Assembly (NCBI GenBank): GCA_964513245.1
Contig: CAZELO010000003.1
Coordinates: 27,066-91,065, forward strand
Direction: 5' to 3'
Length of the DNA stretch: 64,000 nucleotides
DNA from: an uncultured Candidatus Bathyarchaeia archaeon
Lineage (GTDB): Archaea; Thermoproteota; Bathyarchaeia; Bathyarchaeales; DTEX01
The notes under the pieces are model-generated. The model searched no databases. It worked only from the letters and a program-made list of their open reading frames with translations, and was not told where the DNA came from. Shown piece by piece: positions 5,744 through 13,243 of the stretch (position 1 is the stretch's first letter; each line of letters starts with the position of its first letter). The translations under genes were made by a program, and so were the position numbers.

Positions 5744-6268
5744 CTAGATGTATATGTCTAGCAGTCCTCTTTTGGCGACTATGTATATGATGATCGCACT
5801 TATTATGAACTCCACGAGCAGGTAGCTACCATTGTAAACTGCTGAATAGACGATAGGGTTCATTTCTGGTGGCGCATACATCCAAAAGAATAGCACGCCG
5901 CTGGCGAAGTGAGCTAAGAACCTGCCAAAGATGCCAACGCCAACACCGAGCACAGGATACTTCTTGAACAAACCAGCCAAGCCGAGAGCACCAAAAGCTA
6001 TAGGGTAATCAACTACGGCTTGGATCGGGTTATCGATATACCCGCCTATTGCCATATTGACCAGACCGTACACCGCGCTTGCTTCTATCCCAGCGCGTGG
6101 ACCTCTCCTCAAGGAGAACCAGAGCAAAGGCACCATGCCTGCCACGCTTATTGAGCCTCCTTGTGGAAGATGATATATAGGGGGCAGAAAGTCTTTGAGA
6201 ATTGCAGTTAGTGCGATAATAACGGTTCCTTCAGCAAGTATCTTAGTTTCAGACTTATGCTTTTCCAT
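5744..6268 (-). CDS. thiT: ECF thiamine transporter S component ThiT
   Basis: LPQGGSIS, RRGPRAG, Q..VDYPIAFGALG, RFLAHF.SG, YSAVYNGSY motifs; preceded by a TPP riboswitch. Confidence 0.92.
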   Translation of the reverse strand: MEKHKSETKILAEGTVIIALTAILKDFLPPIYHLPQGGSISVAGMVPLLWFSLRRGPRAGIEASAVYGLVNMAIGGYIDNPIQAVVDYPIAFGALGLAGLFKKYPVLGVGVGIFGRFLAHFASGVLFFWMYAPPEMNPIVYSAVYNGSYLLVEFIISAIIIYIVAKRGLLDIYI

Positions 6269-6272
6269 TCTT

Positions 6273-6364
6273 CGTTCCCTCCGCCAGTATTACCTGGATC
6301 AGGTTCCAAGGGTCGACGGCTAGGCAACCGTCCTCTCAGCCGGGTCCAACCCAGCTCCCCTCTG
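6273..6364 (-). ncRNA. TPP (THI-box) riboswitch
   Basis: Minus strand reads GGGGAGCTGGGTTGGACCCGGCTGAGAGGACGGTTGCCTAGCCGTCGACCCTTGGAACCTGATCCAGGTAATACTGGCGGAGGGA, with canonical GGG..CTGAGA..ACCC..AACCTGA..GGTAATAC..GCGGAGGGA elements and pairing P3/P5 stems, immediately before the thiT ATG. Confidence 0.95.
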
Positions 6365-6531
6365 CTATGGCGAAATAGACATTCAGGTATTTAACTGTAA
6401 CGGCGTCATATCGATATTGACTAGATAGGGTTTATTTGCTTGATGGTTTCCCTAGCGTTTGGTGTCTTCTGAGGTTGTCATACTAGTATGTGAAGAGGTT
6501 TTAGGAAGAATCTCATGGGAGCGGAGCCATC

Positions 6532-6539
6532 TCGAAGCC
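6532..6539 (+). repeat. Left target-site duplication TCGAAGCC
   Basis: Identical to 11289-11296 and abuts the left TIR. Confidence 0.93.
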
Positions 6540-6589
6540 GGTTCTGTTCAAATAGCGGTTGTTAAATTCGGTTGTTAAAATCGGTTGCT
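6540..6589 (+). repeat. Left terminal inverted repeat (50 bp)
   Basis: GGTTCTGTTCAAATAGCGGTTGTTAAATTCGGTTGTTAAAATCGGTTGCT is the exact reverse complement of 11239-11288; it contains three CGGTTG units at 13-bp period. Confidence 0.96.
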
Positions 6590-6670
6590 GATGGGGATAT
6601 GGTTTGGTGAGATCAATCTCTGTGTGAACAGCCGATGGTAATTCTTGGGAGATGTCAACCCTACAAAAGT

Positions 6671-7045
6671 TTAGCTATAGCCGAATCCTCTTGGCAGTAT
6701 GTCGAAGAGAACCACTCTTCTAGATTTATCCTCATTACAGAATTGACATCTGACTTTGCTTTTCTCATAATACTTCTCCTTCAAGCATTCTTCACAAATT
6801 CTGAATCGGGTTGCGGCTCCATTTCGGTAGCCTTTCGCTCCTACCTTTAGATGACGGAGTCCTACGAGTTTCATTCCAGCGACAGTTATGTTCCCTTTAA
6901 GCATCTGGTGTCGATTTGGAGTGTACTCTAAGTTTTGAATTAGCTTCTCCCGAATCTTTGCTTCATTTTTCCTAAAAAATTTCTTCAAGTTCTTTCTAAA
7001 AATGTCCAGTTCTATTATTTCATAGGGTTCGGAACTCATGTACAT
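6671..7045 (-). CDS. RelE/ParE-like toxin candidate with inserted CxxC...CxxC motif
   Basis: Small basic protein; YEII...F.KNLKK, L.G...LRHLKVG and C-terminal VVLFDILPR..Y resemble RelE; CEEC and CQFC inserted; overlaps the upstream Panacea-like gene. Confidence 0.65.
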   Translation of the reverse strand: MYMSSEPYEIIELDIFRKNLKKFFRKNEAKIREKLIQNLEYTPNRHQMLKGNITVAGMKLVGLRHLKVGAKGYRNGAATRFRICEECLKEKYYEKSKVRCQFCNEDKSRRVVLFDILPRGFGYS

Positions 7046-7661
7046 TGCCTTCTACAGCATCACTGTATGATTGTTTTAGAGACTCGACTGCCTCTTGATC
7101 CAAAGCTAGCTCTAAGGTAGCAAGCCAACTTTCATCGAGAATGAATTTTTTCTTGGAACGGTTGTCGGAAGGTTTGAACAGTATCAAGGTTCCATGAGGT
7201 ACTTCTGCTACGGTCATAACTTGCCTCAGTCTAGGAACAAATATGCTCAGGTTGTAAGTATATTCCTTTATTTGCTCTGGTGTGTACTCTGAAAATTCAG
7301 CAGTAATATCATCTATTACTTTTAGAAATTGTTCATTTTCTTCCAGAAGTTCTTTGCATCCGTTAAGTAGTTTCTTTCCCTCCTTAGTTAGTCTAATGGG
7401 CCAGCGTTTTCTAATCAATCCTCGACAACTTAGCACTGTTAAGTCATTGTTCACATCCGCACTAAAAGGTCCCTTGTCCCATCTGAAGAAGTTATAAGTG
7501 AACAGTTTGAGCTTTTTTTCGATCATCCTCTTCTGAGTAAGATAGACAAGTTTCTGTAACTTGAGCGTGTCTTCAATAGACCCTGTCGAATTGGTCCTAT
7601 CTATCAAGTACAAAAGCAGAATGTTGTTGACAACTCTGTTCTGAATATTAGATTCACTCAT
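7020..7661 (-). CDS. Panacea (DUF4065/SocA-like) antitoxin candidate
   Basis: LKLQKLVYL...YNFFRWDKGPFSADV motif typical of DUF4065; directly upstream of the toxin-like gene. ATG 7661 preferred over GTG 7682. Confidence 0.75.
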   Translation of the reverse strand: MSESNIQNRVVNNILLLYLIDRTNSTGSIEDTLKLQKLVYLTQKRMIEKKLKLFTYNFFRWDKGPFSADVNNDLTVLSCRGLIRKRWPIRLTKEGKKLLNGCKELLEENEQFLKVIDDITAEFSEYTPEQIKEYTYNLSIFVPRLRQVMTVAEVPHGTLILFKPSDNRSKKKFILDESWLATLELALDQEAVESLKQSYSDAVEGNVHEFRTL

Positions 7662-7768
7662 TTTTAATACCAGAGTTCCCACATCAATTCACTATCCAAC
7701 ATGGAATATTTATGTTTTGTGAATTGCCGAAAAATAGGACCTATAAACTCAAGAGTTGCATAGAGGCG

Positions 7769-8908
7769 TTATTTGGAACCAGAAGCGTTCCTTATAAGAC
7801 TCAACCACTTATTTTTTTCTAGGTTTAGGTCTATTCCTGAGGCTTCTGCTGGTGTCTTCCCGTTTAGGCTTTGGTGTGGTCTTATGAAATTATAGTAGGT
7901 TTTGAACCCATTAACAATCTCTTCTGCTGTAGGGTCGCTTTTCATTCCTCGCATAACTTTTTCCCTTTCTCTAACTGTTCCATTTAGTCTCTCTACGATG
8001 TTGTTGTTTGTTGGGTCTGTGAATCGTGGTTTGCGTATGTGTTGAACTCTTGGGTTCTTTAGGGTAAAGAACTCTTTCTTGAATGCTTTGATGTATGCTG
8101 GGAGACCGTCTGAAACCACGTATTCGGGTTTGGACTTTGCGGTTTCTTTTGCTTTCTGGAACACTCTTCTTGCATCCTGTATATCTCGTGTCTTCGAGAT
8201 CGTGGAGACTAACATGAAACGAGTCTTTTCATCCATCACATTCCAGAGCCAGCTCCATTGACCGCCATTCTTAACTTTCATCTCATCCACATGCCACACT
8301 GTTCCAAGTTGAGGATCAAGCTTATTCACATAAGCATTGATTAACCCCATGTATCTCTTTAGCCAATTATGAACTGTAACATGGGAAATTGTTAGACCGC
8401 TAAACTGCTTAACGTGATCTACAATTTTTCTGAGGCTTATTCCCTTGAAATAGAGGTCAAGACATGCTGAAACAATTTTGGGATCTCCAATTATCTTCTT
8501 GAAGGGTTCATCAACCATGAAGCTCTTGTTGCAGTTTAGGCATGCGAATCTCTGTCGCTTTCCCACCTTCGTTTTACGAGACCCATTCTTCTTGACTTCA
8601 CTTGAACCGCATAGAGGACAGATAATCTCAGAGACTTTCTCTTCCATTTCTAAGAGTATCCGTTCTCTCAAGGCGATCCAGAACTTGACGGCGTGAATGT
8701 GCTTACACTCAACAAAACGGTATGTGTGGTCGGGACATTCGCATCGCCATTCACCTTCTACAATTGAAACAAGGTAACTGCCGTTTCCGCTTTGAGACTT
8801 AACCACATAATTGTTCTCACTAACTCTGCTAATGTGATTCTTGCCGTTATTCACGATCTGTAAGCCTTTTTCTTCACGGCGTTGCTCAAGCTCCTGAAGA
8901 CTCAACAT
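7769..8908 (-). CDS. IS6-family DDE transposase with N-terminal SWIM and Zn-ribbon domains
   Basis: SWIM CECPD..CKHIHAV; CPLC...CLNC ribbon; HTH SLRKI..SHVTVHNW; DDE triad WHVDE / VVSDG / NNNIVERLNG; YNFIRPHQSL.GKTPAE tail. ATG 8908 follows a GGTGA SD. Confidence 0.93.
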   Translation of the reverse strand: MLSLQELEQRREEKGLQIVNNGKNHISRVSENNYVVKSQSGNGSYLVSIVEGEWRCECPDHTYRFVECKHIHAVKFWIALRERILLEMEEKVSEIICPLCGSSEVKKNGSRKTKVGKRQRFACLNCNKSFMVDEPFKKIIGDPKIVSACLDLYFKGISLRKIVDHVKQFSGLTISHVTVHNWLKRYMGLINAYVNKLDPQLGTVWHVDEMKVKNGGQWSWLWNVMDEKTRFMLVSTISKTRDIQDARRVFQKAKETAKSKPEYVVSDGLPAYIKAFKKEFFTLKNPRVQHIRKPRFTDPTNNNIVERLNGTVREREKVMRGMKSDPTAEEIVNGFKTYYNFIRPHQSLNGKTPAEASGIDLNLEKNKWLSLIRNASGSK

Positions 8909-8918
8909 CTCAATCACC

Positions 8919-9007
8919 ACTATAACTACTATAGTGTTTATAGTATTCAAGCTTTATGGTCGCCATAGATAGACTTAAATAATATAAAACCTATACTAAA
9001 TATAGGT
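8919..9007. promoter_or_regulatory. Divergent promoter region with three CTATA-N5-TATAG palindromes
   Basis: ACTATAactacTATAGT (8919-8935), ACTATAgtgttTATAGT (8928-8944) and ACCTATActaaaTATAGGT (8989-9007), between the transposase and the RHH gene. Confidence 0.65.
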
Positions 9008-9015
9008 GTTACAGA

Positions 9016-9156
9016 ATGGCGAATCAAGAATCCACTACGATACAGCTCTCAAAAGAAACAAGGGATCAATTAAGAGGTCTTGGAAAGATGGGCGAAACAT
9101 ACGATGACGTAATAAAGAGGCTGATAGAAAAAGTCAAAAGGTGTGAACACAAATGA
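9016..9156 (+). CDS. Small ribbon-helix-helix DNA-binding protein (46 aa)
   Basis: Below the ORF-track cutoff: MANQESTTIQLSKETRDQLRGLGKMGETYDDVIKRLIEKVKRCEHK. AGGTG SD; stop overlaps the next ATG (ATGA); TTIQL..ETRD.L...GETYDDVI.RLI is an archaeal RHH pattern. Confidence 0.85.
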   Translation: MANQESTTIQLSKETRDQLRGLGKMGETYDDVIKRLIEKVKRCEHK

Positions 9157-9368
9157 GCGAAAAGATGTCATATGACGGGTTCAGACAAATAATCAAAGAG
9201 ACACTTGAGAATTTTCCCAATGGATTGACATGGGGTCAGATAAGAGAGAAACACCCCGAATTGTATCAAAAGTTCCCTGCAAACCAATGGGTTCGACGGA
9301 TGGAAAAAGATATAGGACTCATTCGTATAAAGAAAGCGGGCAAAACGATTTGGAGCATCAAGAAATGA
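9153..9368 (+). CDS. Small hypothetical protein, possible winged-helix
   Basis: 71 aa with ATGA overlaps at both ends; GLTWGQIRE...GLIRIKKAGKTIWSI resembles a wHTH wing. Confidence 0.65.
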   Translation: MSEKMSYDGFRQIIKETLENFPNGLTWGQIREKHPELYQKFPANQWVRRMEKDIGLIRIKKAGKTIWSIKK

Positions 9369-10429
9369 GGATTGACATAAGCAAAATAGACGAAGGACGC
9401 TTCACGGTTCGTGAAGAAATAAACCCAGAGTATGTGAAACAGCTGTCTCAGAGTCTATTAGAAGATGGGCAGTGGAACCCCATAATTATTCGTCCTAAAT
9501 CAAATGGAAGGTACGAACTTATCGCTGGTCATTATCGTCTTCAAGCTTCCAAAGAAGCTGGATTCAAAGAAATTGAAGCGACAGTAAGAGACCTCGCAGA
9601 TGAAGAGGCAGATGTCTTATCATTGAAAACGAATCTTCTTAGACTTGAAATGAGTGCAAGAGAACAAGGAAGAGTTCTAAGCAAAATGATGCAACGTTAT
9701 GGATGGAATCAAAACGAATTAGCAAGAAGATTGAATGTTGAGAGCAAATGGGTTGGAAGGCGGCTCAGAGTTGCACTAGAATTGCATGAGGAAGTTGCAA
9801 AGGCTCTTGATGGTGGTCTAATCAACTTTTCGGTTGCATCAGTAATCGGGGGTGTGCCACTAGTGGCACAACCTAAACTGCTAAAGATCATTATGGAAAG
9901 AGGAGTGACCCAGCTTACTGATGCTGAAACGATCAGACGGCAATTCCTTAACGATACAGTATTCACGATAGGCTATCAAGGTAGGAATATTGAAGACCTT
10001 ATTGAAGCATTAAAGAAAAATGAAATCGCACTTGTCGTGGATGCCAGATACTCTGCTGAATCTCAATATAAGCCAGACTTTAGCGGGGATATACTCAAAA
10101 GAGAATTGAAAAGGAATAACATTAACTATGAACATCATCCTGAACTCGGTATCCCATATTTGATTCAGAATCCATACAAGGAAGGATTCTTTTCAGTTCA
10201 ATGCTTAAAACAATGGTATGATTGGCACATCAGAACCGAGACAGACTTTGAAGATTTCATCGAACACATCAAGAAATCAGGAAGAACTGTTCTGTTGTGT
10301 ATGGAGAGATACGCTAAGCCGATGAGAGACCAACGATACGCTTGTCATAGAGATATTTTGGCAGATTTGATACTTGAGCATAAATCAAGCGACACATTGC
10401 TTAGATTTGAGAAAAGAATTGACTTGTGA
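9365..10429 (+). CDS. ParB/Spo0J-like N-terminal + HTH fused to a DUF488 domain
   Basis: LSQSL..DGQWNPIIIR..YELIAGHYRLQA (ParB/Srx), NLLR, WNQNELARRL..WVGRRL (HTH), then VFTIGYQG..VVDAR..HHPELG..LLCME..CHR (DUF488). Start at the ATGA overlap, 9365. Confidence 0.88.
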   Translation: MRIDISKIDEGRFTVREEINPEYVKQLSQSLLEDGQWNPIIIRPKSNGRYELIAGHYRLQASKEAGFKEIEATVRDLADEEADVLSLKTNLLRLEMSAREQGRVLSKMMQRYGWNQNELARRLNVESKWVGRRLRVALELHEEVAKALDGGLINFSVASVIGGVPLVAQPKLLKIIMERGVTQLTDAETIRRQFLNDTVFTIGYQGRNIEDLIEALKKNEIALVVDARYSAESQYKPDFSGDILKRELKRNNINYEHHPELGIPYLIQNPYKEGFFSVQCLKQWYDWHIRTETDFEDFIEHIKKSGRTVLLCMERYAKPMRDQRYACHRDILADLILEHKSSDTLLRFEKRIDL

Positions 10430-10442
10430 TGAGGAGGGGATA

Positions 10443-11213
10443 TTGTCCGAAAGCTGTATTATAGATGACTTAATTATCCTTGGTCGAGCGGTACCTGAAC
10501 CAATGAAGAACGGAAGAGTAACTGTCTGCATGGGTGGTTACTCAAGAAAACTAGGGTTCGCTAGAATATATCCTACAAAACCATCAACACCCGTCCATAG
10601 ATGGGATATAGTAAAGATTCCAGTTGAACGTGACCCAAGAGATACAAGAGTGGAAAGCTGGAAAATACAAGGGTCAAAGAATGAATGGGATAAATTGGAT
10701 GAGAAGGTTCGGGTTACCTCACATCTTAGGCGAGAAGATCGCCTAAACTTAATTGCTAACCTAACTGATGGATGCGTAAAGGACATTAATGACCAGAAGC
10801 GAAGTTTAGGAATAATAAAACCGACTATCGAAGAATGTTATTTCTGTTCAGAAGAAGACTTTGATCCTACACTTCAAGCAACCCTTTTTGGACCACCCCT
10901 CCCAACTACTAAGAAACAACATCGCAAATATCCAAAAGTAAGATATCGATGTCCAGAATGCCGAACCAAAAACTGTCATGACCAAACTGTGCTTGAATGG
11001 GGATTCTATGAATGGATGAGGAAAAATCCTGATAGCATTGGGCAAGTATGGGAGAATGCTAGGTTTAACTCACCGAAACATCAACTTTACTTCTTTGTTG
11101 GAAACATGCGAGATCGTAGAACGGCATTCTTGGTTATATCGACTCTTCCTCTCCCGAAAGCACCTATAACAAAACCGTTTTTCCCCTTGAGAAAATGGGT
11201 CGGACAATCATAA
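10443..11213 (+). CDS. Conserved hypothetical protein of the type found next to DUF488 genes (possible dual-OB fold)
   Basis: TVC.GG...RIYP, RWD, DTRVESWK, SLGIIKP, CPEC, LEWG and FFVGN motifs; strong GAGGAGGGG SD before TTG 10443; ends 25 nt before the right TIR. Confidence 0.7.
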   Translation: MSESCIIDDLIILGRAVPEPMKNGRVTVCMGGYSRKLGFARIYPTKPSTPVHRWDIVKIPVERDPRDTRVESWKIQGSKNEWDKLDEKVRVTSHLRREDRLNLIANLTDGCVKDINDQKRSLGIIKPTIEECYFCSEEDFDPTLQATLFGPPLPTTKKQHRKYPKVRYRCPECRTKNCHDQTVLEWGFYEWMRKNPDSIGQVWENARFNSPKHQLYFFVGNMRDRRTAFLVISTLPLPKAPITKPFFPLRKWVGQS

Positions 11214-11238
11214 TCCCCTGAATTCAAGCAAAAACTGT

Positions 11239-11288
11239 AGCAACCGATTTTAACAACCGAATTTAACAACCGCTATTTGAACAGAACC
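11239..11288 (-). repeat. Right terminal inverted repeat (50 bp)
   Basis: AGCAACCGATTTTAACAACCGAATTTAACAACCGCTATTTGAACAGAACC, exact inverse of 6540-6589. Confidence 0.96.
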
Positions 11289-11296
11289 TCGAAGCC
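11289..11296 (+). repeat. Right target-site duplication TCGAAGCC
   Basis: Identical to 6532-6539. Confidence 0.93.
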
Positions 11297-11317: not shown

Positions 11318-13243
11318 ATGAACTTAGAACATATACTCCAGAAAAAGGAGAGACTTTGCAAATTGGAAATCGAGGAAAAGTCCGGTTTCACTATGACCTC
11401 ACTGGTCGCCGTTCTTTTTGCGATGGTGGCCTTCACTCCAGCCTTGATTTATCTTCAACTGACGATTGGGTCAGGCTCGTTGCCCACAACATGGTTTGTT
11501 GTCTTACTATTGGTTGAGGCCTTCAAATTCGGGGGTCGCCACATTACCAAACAGGAAGCTTATGTAATACTGGGTCTCGCCGGAGGGGCTGGAGCCTACA
11601 CTGGTTATCTCTGGTGGGCTTGGTTTGTTCAGTCAGACGTAGCACAGCTTTTCAATTTTACACCAGCAGATTTCCCAAGCTGGCTTATTCCCGCTGGAGA
11701 AAACCTTAGTTACGTTTGGACAAACAGAACGTTTTTTCACCCGTCTTGGATACTCCCTTTAAGCGTATCCCTGTTGGCTAACGTCCTTGCCAATATCTGT
11801 GCCCTGTCCTTAGGATTTATTGGAAAGAGAATATTCATAGAAACAGAAAATCTTCCTTTCCCAATGGAGCATGTCAGTGCTCAGGGCATAATAACAATCA
11901 CTGAGGGCAAAAAAGACACTATTAAGTACCTCTTCTCTTTCGCCACTGTAGGATTCATCTATGGTTTGATTCTTTACGCGGTTCCCAGCATGATTGAAGC
12001 GTGGACGGGAAGAAGACAGGTCTTTATGCCGATCCCTTGGGCACAATTCGAAGTAGAGCAATTGCCAGGCGCGGTCCTCGGGATATGGACCGACTTGGGC
12101 GCCATTGCGTCGGCTTTTGTTCTCCCCTATAATGTTATTATCAGCGTAGTTATAGGTTCCTATGCTGTCTGGGTTGGGGGTAACACGCTTCTTGTCACGT
12201 ATAATCTTGCCCCTGTTCCATGGTGGAGCCCAGGGATGACTTTAGATCGTATACTCCAACAATCTACTCTCTATTTCTGGGCAGCTCCCTTGATTGGAAT
12301 AGGTCTCGCGGTTGGAGTAATGCCAATTTTGCATCACCCTCGCACAATTGGGCGCGCCTTCCGCAGCCTGTTCAGCACGAGTGCATCCCAAGAAGGAAAA
12401 ACACAAACATGGCGTTTGCTGGCGTATCTACCTATCATTGGATGGCTTGGGAGCGCGTTGGTCGGAGTCTCTTTATATGCGTTTCTTGCTCCCGCATTTC
12501 CAATATGGATTCCTGCTGTTATGATCTTTATTCTTCCTATGGCGACCACCCTTATTAGTGGTCGCGCCTTGGGTATAGCAGGTGTAGGGGTAGGCGGTCT
12601 TACCAAACTTCAAAGTATCGCTTTTCTCTCAACGGGATACTCAAATCTAGATGCTTGGGTAGTACCAAGTCTCTCAGGCGCGGATGGTTCGGTTTGGGTT
12701 TCGCGCTTCAAAGTTATGCAGCTAACCGGGACCAAAATTAGATCATATTTGAAACTGTGGATTCTTTTGATCCCGCTCCATTTTGTATTTGCGATTATTT
12801 TTACACAGGTTTTCTGGACGTTGGCCCCAATGCCTTCAAGTGCATATCCTGCAACGAAGATATTCTGGCCTCTAGATGCCATAAATTTCTCTGTCTGGGT
12901 TAGAGGTAGACAGCAGGGAGTGTTCAATCCAGATTGGATACTTTACGGATTTATTGTAGGAGCATTAATCTATGGAGTAAGCAAGATCCCCATTCTACCT
13001 TTTTCCGCCCTATCTTACCCAGCTCTAGCCGTAGGAGCATGCTCACAATACCCGCCTTACGCGACAACACTACTCATCGGGTTAGGGATCAGGCTTATGC
13101 TCACAAAGTTGTTGGGAGAAGAATTCTGGAACCAAAACAAATCGATCTTTTCTGCGGGCCTCTTGGTAGGTGAGGGCATAGCCATAACTTTTGGAGTTGC
13201 TATGACTCTGATTCTGCATTCAATATGGACCATGCCGTACTGA
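11318..13243 (+). CDS. OPT-superfamily-like membrane transporter
   Basis: Many hydrophobic segments; ITKQE and ENLPFPM motifs, C-terminal AGLLVGEG OPT-like signature. True start may be TTG near 11363. Confidence 0.75.
   Translation: MNLEHILQKKERLCKLEIEEKSGFTMTSLVAVLFAMVAFTPALIYLQLTIGSGSLPTTWFVVLLLVEAFKFGGRHITKQEAYVILGLAGGAGAYTGYLWWAWFVQSDVAQLFNFTPADFPSWLIPAGENLSYVWTNRTFFHPSWILPLSVSLLANVLANICALSLGFIGKRIFIETENLPFPMEHVSAQGIITITEGKKDTIKYLFSFATVGFIYGLILYAVPSMIEAWTGRRQVFMPIPWAQFEVEQLPGAVLGIWTDLGAIASAFVLPYNVIISVVIGSYAVWVGGNTLLVTYNLAPVPWWSPGMTLDRILQQSTLYFWAAPLIGIGLAVGVMPILHHPRTIGRAFRSLFSTSASQEGKTQTWRLLAYLPIIGWLGSALVGVSLYAFLAPAFPIWIPAVMIFILPMATTLISGRALGIAGVGVGGLTKLQSIAFLSTGYSNLDAWVVPSLSGADGSVWVSRFKVMQLTGTKIRSYLKLWILLIPLHFVFAIIFTQVFWTLAPMPSSAYPATKIFWPLDAINFSVWVRGRQQGVFNPDWILYGFIVGALIYGVSKIPILPFSALSYPALAVGACSQYPPYATTLLIGLGIRLMLTKLLGEEFWNQNKSIFSAGLLVGEGIAITFGVAMTLILHSIWTMPY

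Follow-up and report, generated by a model that had tools for sequence, protein, structure and literature searches.

A locus on contig CAZELO010000003.1 (assembly GCA_964513245.1) of an uncultured Candidatus Bathyarchaeia archaeon raises the question of how a single transposase of the IS6 family of insertion sequences (ISs) comes to be enclosed, together with six other genes, between one pair of inverted repeats, and why this assembly lies directly beside a promoter-like sequence. We analyzed 64,000 nucleotides of the contig (positions 27,066 to 91,065), hereafter called the window, in whose numbering positions are given; the element in question occupies 6540–11288. In the part of the IS6 review available to us, members of the family are described as 0.7–0.9 kb long (up to about 1.8 kb in clades h and i), with 15–20-bp inverted repeats (IRs), one gene and an 8-bp target site duplication (TSD), and cargo is usually moved as compound units of two directly repeated copies (PMC7986276). 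The work presented here makes it likely that the window element is something else, namely an autonomous, promoter-adjacent transporter IS (tIS) of 4,749 bp that belongs to an undescribed, mostly archaeal IS6 clade.

Ends, transposase and relatives of the element

The element is bounded by two terminal inverted repeats (TIRs) of 50 nt, which are 100% complementary and both start with GG, and by the 8-bp TSD TCGAAGCC, whose two copies are identical at 8/8 positions and sit flush against the TIRs (Table 1). Between the ends are seven open reading frames (ORFs), one for the transposase and six for passengers, two of them to its left and four to its right. The initial annotation of this DNA, made from the letters alone, had described perfect 50-bp TIRs, an exact 8-bp duplication and one central transposase with cargo on both sides, and our analysis reproduces all of these. 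Each TIR consists of a tip, GGTTCTGTTCAAATAG, followed by three subterminal repeats of ~13 nt (CGGTTGTTAAA, CGGTTGTTAAA and CGGTTGCT). The tip sequence GGTTCTGTTCAAA agrees with the GG, cTGTt and caaa motifs that the accessible part of the review lists as IS6 hallmarks, along with a DDE triad followed by K/R (PMC7986276). With up to three mismatches allowed, the first 19 nt of the TIR match two places in the window, both of them TIR arms, against a shuffle expectation of 0.03, and none of 100 shuffles produced two or more matches. The GC content of the element (0.385–0.413) is below that of the upstream (0.478–0.529) and downstream (0.433–0.480) flanks.

The transposase ORF as listed runs on the minus strand from 7769 to 8950, where it reaches a TTG codon. 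Because relatives begin at ATG 8908 in the alignment, this codon is the likely true start, giving a protein of 379 aa. The protein matches the Pfam domain DDE_Tnp_IS240 (PF13610) with 77.8 bits (cut-off 27, 1.2e-21) and, over residues 157–357, the NCBIfam model NF033587 'IS6 family transposase' with 139.4 bits (cut-off 125). All other IS family models of NCBIfam stay under their own cut-offs on this protein; an IS1/IS1595 zinc domain scores 33.1 (cut-off 28). The domains follow the order SWIM-type CxCxnCxH finger, four-Cys zinc ribbon, helix-turn-helix (HTH) and DDE plus R. In the 393-aa numbering used for these motifs, the SWIM residues C70, C72, C82 and H84, the ribbon residues C111, C114, C137 and C140, and the catalytic D222, D281 and E320 with R327 (E+7) are kept in at least 95% of 40 aligned relatives, and the window protein, an uninterrupted ORF, has every residue conserved at that level. 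The Pfam SWIM model is also above its cut-off in a paralogue on contig C9 of the same genome, and SWIM matches are precomputed for several homologs. The nearest annotated relatives are entries named 'IS6 family transposase' from Bathyarchaeia, together with ISCpe7 (35% identical over residues 146–369). About 3,500 homologs are present in public data; since NCBI already gives two close homologs the name 'IS6 family transposase', the protein family is not new. For comparison, the part of the review available to us gives IS6 transposases a length of 213–254 aa, with longer proteins in clade h (340–350 aa, including a zinc finger) and clade i (~450 aa) (PMC7986276). The assignment of the transposase to IS6 in the initial annotation is borne out by these scores, and we conclude with high confidence that the element is an IS6-family tIS.

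A search for copies with different cargo in the genome to which the window belongs (G000; 2.2 Mb, 32 contigs) revealed three further elements. The first, C5:5647–10443, is 4797 bp long, with 50-nt TIRs, one arm of which is 94% identical to the window TIR, an exact TSD (CTGAACCG) and a transposase 83% identical to that of the window. Its cargo, a 65-aa winged HTH (wHTH) protein and a 957-aa fusion of HSDR_N, N6_Mtase and two Methylase_S domains, is entirely different, so that the single-transposase tIS architecture suggested by the initial annotation recurs in the same genome with other passengers and its own TSD. Abutting this element is a second one, C5:3984–5638 (L008 3984–5638), of 1655 bp, which has family-type TIRs and no transposase and carries a complete ShosTA pair (ShosA 4.6e-71, ShosT 1.2e-20). 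The 8-mer CTGAACCG occurs three times on C5, before, between and after the two. The insertion point of the smaller element is the stop codon of a short gene (ORF) that by eye resembles ribosomal protein S17e. The third element, C9:24325–27375 (L009 5326–8376), measures ~3051 bp, has a TSD that matches at 7/8 positions with a 1-nt offset, and adjoins the upstream side of a Peptidase_M48 (HtpX-like) gene. It carries a MazE/AbrB-like 54-aa gene, a 285-aa proteasome-subunit-like gene and a DUF2283-like pair, and the pairing of a small gene with a proteasome-like gene recurs in two other relatives (L018, L029). A reading of the C9 transposase as interrupted by two stops was rejected, as the 373-aa frame is intact and the stops lay in read-through margins.

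Other traces of the family are present in the same genome and study. Weak solo TIR matches (79–95% over 20–52 nt) and a short transposase fragment with stops, at C19:11721–11772, C12:28114–28152 and C5:47577–47744, may be remnants of older members. In addition, contigs of two runs of the same study (X2, X3) carry a near-identical TIR (three differences in 48 nt), matching the window at 6540–6587 and from 6562 onward, with other flanks and interiors; they therefore represent close relatives of the window element elsewhere in that habitat.

To place the element in a wider family, we scanned species-representative genomes with the transposase, which gave 22 loci (29–53% identity) in Bathyarchaeia, Methanothrix, Nitrososphaerales, Archaeoglobaceae and one Dehalococcoidia bacterium, and kept 80 of 250 loci of metagenome relatives. 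Our delimiting script required a GG-starting TIR pair matching at 13/20 positions or more and bracketing the transposase, plus an exact 8-bp direct repeat. Boundaries were thereby obtained for 10 of the 22 genome loci and 35 of the 80 metagenome loci, the latter fraction rising to 24 of 29 where at least 1500 nt were available on both sides. As a control, displaced matching 8-mers sought genome-wide in G000, with no TIR requirement, gave one chance pair. Subtracting five duplicates and adding three elements from G000 itself leaves 43 distinct elements of 2080–7508 bp, each with one to about eight passenger genes and none reduced to a transposase. An exact 8-bp TSD and GG-tipped TIRs are found in 42/43, the remaining one being the C9 element, and the consensus of the 86 ends is GGTTCTGTT.

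What these elements share is limited to their ends and their transposase. When proteins were clustered across the 43 elements, the transposase cluster was represented in 42, the next largest cluster in eight, and 128 of 226 ORFs were singletons; in pairwise blastn only the TIRs and the transposase gene align in nearly all pairs. One pair, L113 and L137, is 95.8% identical over 2172 bp comprising the transposase and the right cargo, whereas the left cargo and the TSDs differ. As far as sequence comparison tells, then, the DNA on either side of the transposase gene serves as a cargo bay whose contents are freely exchanged. The sole bacterial relative, L027 (6356–9655, from a Dehalococcoidia metagenome-assembled genome), is 3300 bp long with TSD GCCGGACT and an N6_N4 methylase fused to HNH as cargo; its transposase, 29% identical to that of the window, is devoid of the SWIM part and begins at the zinc ribbon, and its flanks are without a TATA-like box (n = 1). 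Taken together, the survey gives good reason to believe that the window element belongs to a large IS6 clade that is mostly archaeal and so far undescribed.

Passenger genes of the window element and its family

In the left cargo, the start of gene 1 is overlapped by passenger gene 2, a SocA/Panacea-domain gene whose own likely start is ATG 7661. PADLOC matches it to PDC-M19A over its N-half (3.9e-8) and to DarG (2.4e-4). Passenger gene 1 has seven homologs of 72–83% identity, all beginning MSSEPYE, and a big protein search with the 122-aa product found only eight homologs. Pfam gave a sub-threshold match to DUF7117 and nothing else, and the AlphaFold2 (AF2) model, built from seven sequences, was unusable (predicted local distance difference test, pLDDT, 42.7); in a language-model atlas the nearest cluster is 'RelE family toxin' (0.92, 158 shared features). 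As a lead only, gene 1 may encode a RelE/ParE-like toxin that partners the Panacea protein, and the two genes can be taken as a candidate module of a Panacea antitoxin-like gene with a small RelE/ParE-like partner.

The right cargo operon diverges from the transposase gene, and the AT-rich interval between them (8909–9015) presumably holds promoters and operators. Its first gene, passenger gene 3, is above the Pfam cut-off for DUF7557 and has a sub-threshold match to VAPB_antitox, and possibly encodes a small DNA-binding regulator or antitoxin. Passenger gene 4 has no match in Pfam, PADLOC or NCBIfam, and of the six passengers it is the one least certain to be coding. Passenger gene 5 combines ParB_N (62.1 bits), HTH_ParB (27.6 bits) and DUF488 (55.7 bits) in Pfam and is matched in PADLOC by PDC-M19A over its C-half (1.6e-20). 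An archaeal ParB-HTH-DUF488 fusion has been reported to bind CTP, its role being given as unknown in the part of the preprint available to us (10.1101/2025.10.10.680097). Passenger gene 6, which likely starts at 10443, carries a CxxC...C zinc motif and has 311 homologs, all unnamed, in several archaeal phyla. Its AF2 model is confident (pLDDT 92.2), and the best matches of the model in the PDB (Foldseek) are the DNA binders HIN-200, RPA and TEBP, with TM-scores of just 0.12–0.42; a tandem fold like the oligonucleotide/oligosaccharide-binding (OB) fold is suggested by the model as a lead only.

The PDC-M19A model is thus matched in halves, its N-half by gene 2 and its C-half by the DUF488 part of gene 5. 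The right cargo would form a second candidate module, PDC-M19-like, made of the ParB-CTPase-HTH-DUF488 protein, the tandem-OB-like zinc protein and two small regulators. The defence/addiction-like character that the initial annotation had assigned to the cargo agrees with the PADLOC and Pfam matches, and on balance we favor a role in defence or addiction for these genes.

Across the family, the domain matches likewise point to a cargo dominated by restriction-modification, toxin-antitoxin parts and candidate defence genes. Among the 118 cargo ORFs of at least 100 aa, Pfam identified N6_Mtase in six, Methylase_S in five, N6_N4_Mtase and Proteasome-like domains in four each, DUF6978, DUF1828 (both PADLOC PDC-M24) and ParB_N in three each, DUF488 (one of them outside the window), HNH and PIN in two each, and AAA_21 and RloB in one each. 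The element of L110 carries an M19B-like homolog of the window gene beside a 194-aa ORF, with Panacea and PIN genes on the other side.

Table 1. Features of the element and its junctions (window coordinates)
Feature	Position	Strand	Evidence
Left TSD copy, TCGAAGCC	6532–6539	.	Read in sequence
Left TIR, 50 nt	6540–6589	+	Repeat pair 100% complementary
Passenger gene 1, 122 aa (ORF listed 6671–7045)	6671–7039	-	Seven homologs
Passenger gene 2, SocA/Panacea-domain, antitoxin-like	7020–7682	-	Pfam SocA_Panacea 33.8 bits (cut-off 25.7)
IS6-family DDE transposase, 379 aa	7769–8908	-	Pfam, NCBIfam, alignment of relatives
Intergenic, divergent, transposase / right cargo operon	8909–9015	.	AT-rich, short palindromes
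Passenger gene 3, 46-aa DUF7557, VapB-like	9016–9156	+	Pfam DUF7557 39.1 bits (cut-off 25)
Passenger gene 4, 71-aa ORF	9153–9368	+	ORF list
Passenger gene 5, 354 aa, ParB_N (CTPase fold)-HTH_ParB-DUF488 fusion	9365–10429	+	Pfam
Passenger gene 6, 256 aa, PDC-M19B-like (ORF 10374–11213)	10443–11213	+	PADLOC PDC-M19B 3.8e-11
Right TIR, 50 nt	11239–11288	-	Partner arm of left TIR
Right TSD copy, TCGAAGCC	11289–11296	.	Read in sequence
Host BRE/TATA-like box, AAAAA-CTTATAAA	11297–11309	+	Directly past right TSD, facing 641-aa membrane-protein gene

Upstream of the element, a gene at 5744–6268 on the minus strand encodes a Thia_YuaJ thiamine transporter (Pfam, 141.7 bits) and is led by a thiamine pyrophosphate (TPP) riboswitch at 6259–6371 on the same strand (Rfam RF00059, 64 bits; gathering score 54.3). 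In all three runs, this conserved aptamer accounts for the very high summed depth of contigs at 6275–6345.

Target sites next to BRE/TATA boxes

The right junction of the window element reads TCGAAGCC followed directly by AAAAACTTATAAACTTAGAACATG, which matches TTTATATA at 6/8 positions at offset 5 past the TSD and resembles an archaeal TATA box preceded by a transcription factor B recognition element (BRE). When the flanks of the 43 elements are read outward from the TSD, one side usually has the form AAA-nn-yTTATATA. We scored the better of the two sides against TTTATATA at offsets 4–6 past the TSD; choosing the TATA side by its score inflates the resulting figure, and controls were scored by the same best-of-two rule. 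A match of at least 6/8 was found in 21 of the 43 elements, compared with 2.0% of 9,789 random sites in the same loci and 4.3% of 22,865 intergenic-like sites, which lie outside long open frames (binomial P about 1e-17), and a match of at least 7/8 in 12 of the 43, compared with 0.2% and 0.5%, respectively. The signal persists without the Methanothrix thermosome group described below (10/32, P about 6e-7), although these P values overstate independence, as the 43 elements are phylogenetically related and 11 sit at homologous promoters. All of these statistics describe natural insertions only.

Among the matching elements, the distance to the box is nearly fixed. Twenty elements have it at offset 5, one at offset 4 and none at offset 6, smaller counts at offsets 3 and 7 being an echo of the TA repeat. 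Positions 1–3 past the TSD, which played no part in picking the TATA side, are A in 24, 32 and 28 of the 43 elements on that side and in 6, 13 and 7 on the other, while positions 4–5 are not AT-rich. With the TATA side on the right in 24 elements and on the left in 19, orientation is free. An outward ORF of at least 50 codons begins within 260 nt in 31 of the 43, and 10 of the 12 misses have a flank of 118 nt or less. The 8-bp targets themselves have no consensus and are 50% GC. Once the rule had been formed, two elements on IMG/VR contigs (the two delimited among five long loci) were examined, and each has a T/A box at offset 5.

Repeated use of the same kind of site provides a second line of evidence. 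Eleven Methanothrix-type elements lie at one relative position before thermosome genes (Cpn60_TCP1 confirmed in 5/5 genes checked), and nine of them have distinct exact TSDs; flanks in this group are 67–82% identical, except for L097/L112 (94.6%) and L016/L110 (100%). In the latter pair, the Methanothrix elements L016 5772–9901 and L110 113–4202 lie before a thermosome-like gene and do not differ in their flanks or their TSD, CGAGAGAG, yet they are 4130 and 4090 bp long, carry different cargo and have transposase genes that are 81% identical. Either two independent insertions hit one site or an element was replaced in place. In addition, 9 of the 43 elements have a further family TIR directly on the other side of the 8-mer, the neighbor being complete, with a third copy of the 8-mer, on C5 alone. 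We consider it probable that insertions of this family sit at a fixed distance from a BRE/TATA sequence, with the box starting 5 nt past the TSD.

In the window, the box faces a host gene at 11318–13243 on the plus strand whose 641-aa product is a multi-pass membrane protein; relatives have many paralogues of it, and, as Pfam gives no hit, its identification as an OPT transporter was rejected. The TATA-like box lies only ~9 nt before ATG 11318, so that translation probably begins at a later ATG such as that of M26.

How the box would be recognized is a matter on which we take a much more guarded view. The landmark could be read as DNA sequence or shape, or through bound proteins, the candidates being TATA-binding protein (TBP) and transcription factor B (TFB), possibly by way of the SWIM or zinc-ribbon extension; we hold the protein-mediated possibility to be doubtful. 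A single complex prediction with TBP, the TFB core (residues 105–310) and the transposase, all supplied as alignments, gave a score of 0.01, which lends it no support and counts neither for nor against it. It is equally tentative to propose that SWIM/zinc-ribbon IS6 transposases read the BRE/TATA occupied by TBP/TFB, or the DNA shape that this complex imposes, and that they constitute the first promoter-targeted DNA transposon family in Archaea.

Rival readings, mobility and comparison with known systems

Alternative explanations address the target pattern, the mobility of the window copy, the origin of its architecture and the purpose of its cargo. Near-random insertion could leave a promoter-adjacent pattern if only harmless intergenic insertions survived: all delimited insertions are outside long ORFs, TATA matches are already commoner at intergenic-like than at random sites (4.3% and 2.0%), and the insertions known here are natural ones, none of them de novo. 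Selection, however, would not fix the spacing, with 20 elements at offset 5 and 1 and 0 at offsets 4 and 6, and the excess over intergenic-like sites is about 11-fold, with the P value given above. Survivorship also fits poorly with nine exact TSDs at one relative position before homologous thermosome promoters, with the identical site that L016 and L110 share under different cargo and with the three copies of one 8-mer on C5, and we regard it as quite improbable. The window element could also be a fixed fossil, a tIS that is no longer mobile and whose genes are now ordinary host genes. We judge this improbable, given that its TIRs are identical at 50/50 and its TSD at 8/8 positions, that the transposase ORF is intact with all residues conserved at 95% or more, and that the GC content is still ~0.1 under that of the upstream flank and 0.03–0.08 under that of the downstream flank; what decay looks like is exemplified by the C9 element, with its 7/8 TSD and 1-nt offset. 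The points that speak for a fossil are the single copy, with no identical paralogue in G000, a depth equal to that of the flanks and the absence of a contig skipping the element.

The compound units that IS6 elements usually form to carry genes, according to the part of the review available to us (PMC7986276), suggest a further origin, in which a classical pseudo-compound transposon lost one of its two IS copies. This reading hardly seems credible, because the cargo lies on both sides of one transposase within one TIR pair and one TSD, because all 43 delimited elements share this layout without a second transposase copy or remnant inside, and because there is also a derivative that has ends of this kind but no transposase. 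Finally, some of the cargo may serve the element, through regulation, stability or addiction only, rather than host defence. A small ORF is placed head-to-head with the transposase in 10 of 13 elements read ORF by ORF, and by Pfam this ORF is ribbon-helix-helix-like in L016 and L031, MazE/AbrB-like in L009 (the C9 element) and L014, a wHTH in the C5 element with a transposase (C5-B) and DUF7557 in the window; those of L018 and L029 have no family hit and look MazE-like by eye. The CTP binding of an archaeal ParB-HTH-DUF488 fusion, reported in the accessible part of the preprint (10.1101/2025.10.10.680097), is in keeping with such a role. Against this, the small genes have different folds and none occurs in more than 8 of 43 elements, ParB_N is found in only 3 of 118 cargo ORFs, and the DUF488 and M19B pair matches a PADLOC candidate defence system and is also present on L110 without the ParB domain. 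We therefore consider cargo of this self-serving kind rather unlikely.

Several observations weigh against the reading that we prefer, an autonomous, promoter-adjacent IS6 tIS. Two relatives, L014 (98.7 bits) and L027 (118.5 bits), fall under the NCBIfam IS6 cut-off of 125, IS6 still being their best match. The function of the cargo is suggested by family names, PDC-M19 and PDC-M24 being candidate systems, and many cargo ORFs match nothing. More than half of the elements (22/43) score under 6/8 in the target comparison, six of them at 4/8 or less, and in eight of the nine arrays the neighbor's far end or a third 8-mer was looked for and not found. In the probable source run, contig depth is 13.4x over the element and 11.3x and 10.9x over its flanks, and among the contigs of three runs checked for a joint across the element, none skips it. 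An identical second copy was sought in G000 and not found, the best match being 79% in nucleotides over the transposase gene. An empty site was not found either; the 641-aa neighbor is at most 40% identical and multi-copy in relatives, and no second genome of the genus was available for the search. At L013, the orthologous thermosome promoter of another genome is unoccupied, but it is not a clean empty site, because the homologous stretch ends 4 nt inside the TSD and does not resume in the far flank. The initial annotation had read the perfect ends as signs of a recent insertion and possible activity, and the search for an empty site, an identical second copy and a skipping contig yielded nothing in favor of that part of its description.

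A model that unites our data would run as follows. The single transposase, through its SWIM finger, zinc ribbon, HTH and DDE plus R domains, would recognize the ~50-nt TIRs, composed of the IS6 tip GGTTCTGTT and the subterminal repeats. By analogy with DDE and IS6 chemistry, the 3'-OH ends at the GG tips would attack a target cut with an 8-bp stagger, and all DNA between the TIRs would travel as one unit, making a second IS copy unnecessary. The IS6 cointegrate route would copy the whole unit, with resolution by host recombination. The 8-bp target would be placed immediately upstream of the BRE 'AAA', so that the promoter fires away from the element, which may insert in either orientation. Spacing and arrays suggest that the promoter landmark, and not the 8-bp sequence, sets the target. 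After insertion, the TSD copy beside the TATA box would keep its distance and could be struck again, and repeated hits on one landmark would explain tandem arrays with one 8-mer, such as the three copies on C5.

This family would matter for several fields. IS6 has been studied almost solely as a small IS that moves resistance genes as two-copy compound units, and a mostly archaeal branch appears to work differently. For archaeal immunity, it could be the means by which uncultured archaea pass on horizontally, and reshuffle, restriction-modification, ShosTA, toxin-antitoxin and candidate defence genes, and its cargo offers a ready list of genes worth testing. The targeting, if confirmed, could provide a position-specific, promoter-sparing insertion tool for archaeal genetics. 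If the more far-reaching proposal of a transposase guided by the promoter complex were true, the family would be a functional analogue of Ty3 and TnGBS, stacking defence/addiction cassettes in arrays upstream of housekeeping promoters (thermosome, HtpX-like), and hence a builder of archaeal defence islands and a natural safe-harbor insertion system.

Compared with the IS6 family (IS26, IS257, ISCpe7; archaeal clade A), the window element shares the DDE_Tnp_IS240 domain, the DDE plus R residues, the tip motifs, the 8-bp TSD and a passing score with the NCBIfam model, and it has an N-terminal zinc-finger extension in common with clades h and i. It differs in size (4.75 kb, relatives 2.1–7.5 kb), in its ~50-nt IRs with subterminal repeats, in the added SWIM finger and in holding passengers inside one IS, six in the window and one to about eight in its class. 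The small, single-gene, short-IR architecture is thus absent from the window element, and the departure is one of architecture, not of transposase kinship. The fixed BRE/TATA distance is a further difference, as the part of the IS6 review available to us describes no such target rule (PMC7986276). The same part names only one IS6 member with a passenger gene, ISDsp3, which is present once in Dehalococcoides sp. BAV1 and carries one hypothetical passenger; this places the window element outside the IS6 members catalogued there, as the initial annotation had surmised (PMC7986276). ISDsp3, which we know by description only, shares with the window element a single IS6 transposase with a passenger inside the IRs, and our guess is that the Dehalococcoidia element L027 is related to it.

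Other IS families contain tISs and mobile insertion cassettes (MICs), including IS1595, IS66 and IS231-MIC. The window element has the defining features of a tIS, with passengers in a single IR pair and one TSD, and the transposase-less C5:3984–5638, with its family-type ends, resembles a MIC; the difference from the tISs and MICs of IS1595, IS66 and IS231 is the transposase family. IS6 elements of comparable cargo diversity or defence content were not found in the literature searched. As for the cargo, gene 6 is matched by PADLOC's M19B model, with genes 2 and 5 each matching one half of M19A, but Panacea and DUF488 form one protein in M19A, whereas here they are encoded by two genes flanking the transposase, DUF488 being fused to ParB-CTPase-HTH; no paper on PDC-M19 was found in the same literature. 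With PanA/Panacea pairs, the window element shares a Panacea domain above the Pfam cut-off; the small downstream ORF that overlaps it is a candidate toxin by language-model features.

For the target rule, the closest parallels lie outside IS6. TnGBS and ISLre2-type Mutator-like elements insert upstream of sigma-A promoters and, like the present family, are cargo-bearing DDE elements that keep a constant distance upstream of a promoter element when they integrate and leave the promoter intact (PMC3942029). According to the part of that paper available to us, they differ in being bacterial, in their Mutator-like transposase, in using the -35 region of sigma-70 promoters and in having an orientation bias (PMC3942029), whereas the window family has archaeal hosts, an IS6 transposase, a BRE/TATA landmark and no orientation bias. 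On Archaea, the same part notes that ISH6 duplicates an AT-rich 8-mer and nothing further (PMC3942029). Searches for multi-gene IS6 tISs, SWIM-bearing archaeal IS6 elements and TATA-targeted archaeal transposons found no paper, in a literature search that was not exhaustive and that lay outside ISfinder and TnCentral. The retrotransposon Ty3 targets Pol III start sites through TFIIIB, a case in which protein-mediated targeting is established. On the more far-reaching proposal, the window family would by analogy integrate position-specifically beside the binding site of a TBP/TFIIB-like factor, with the difference that Ty3 is a eukaryotic retroelement. As far as we found, the multi-gene IS6 architecture, its cargo and the BRE/TATA target rule are new here, and the target rule is new for archaeal transposons too.

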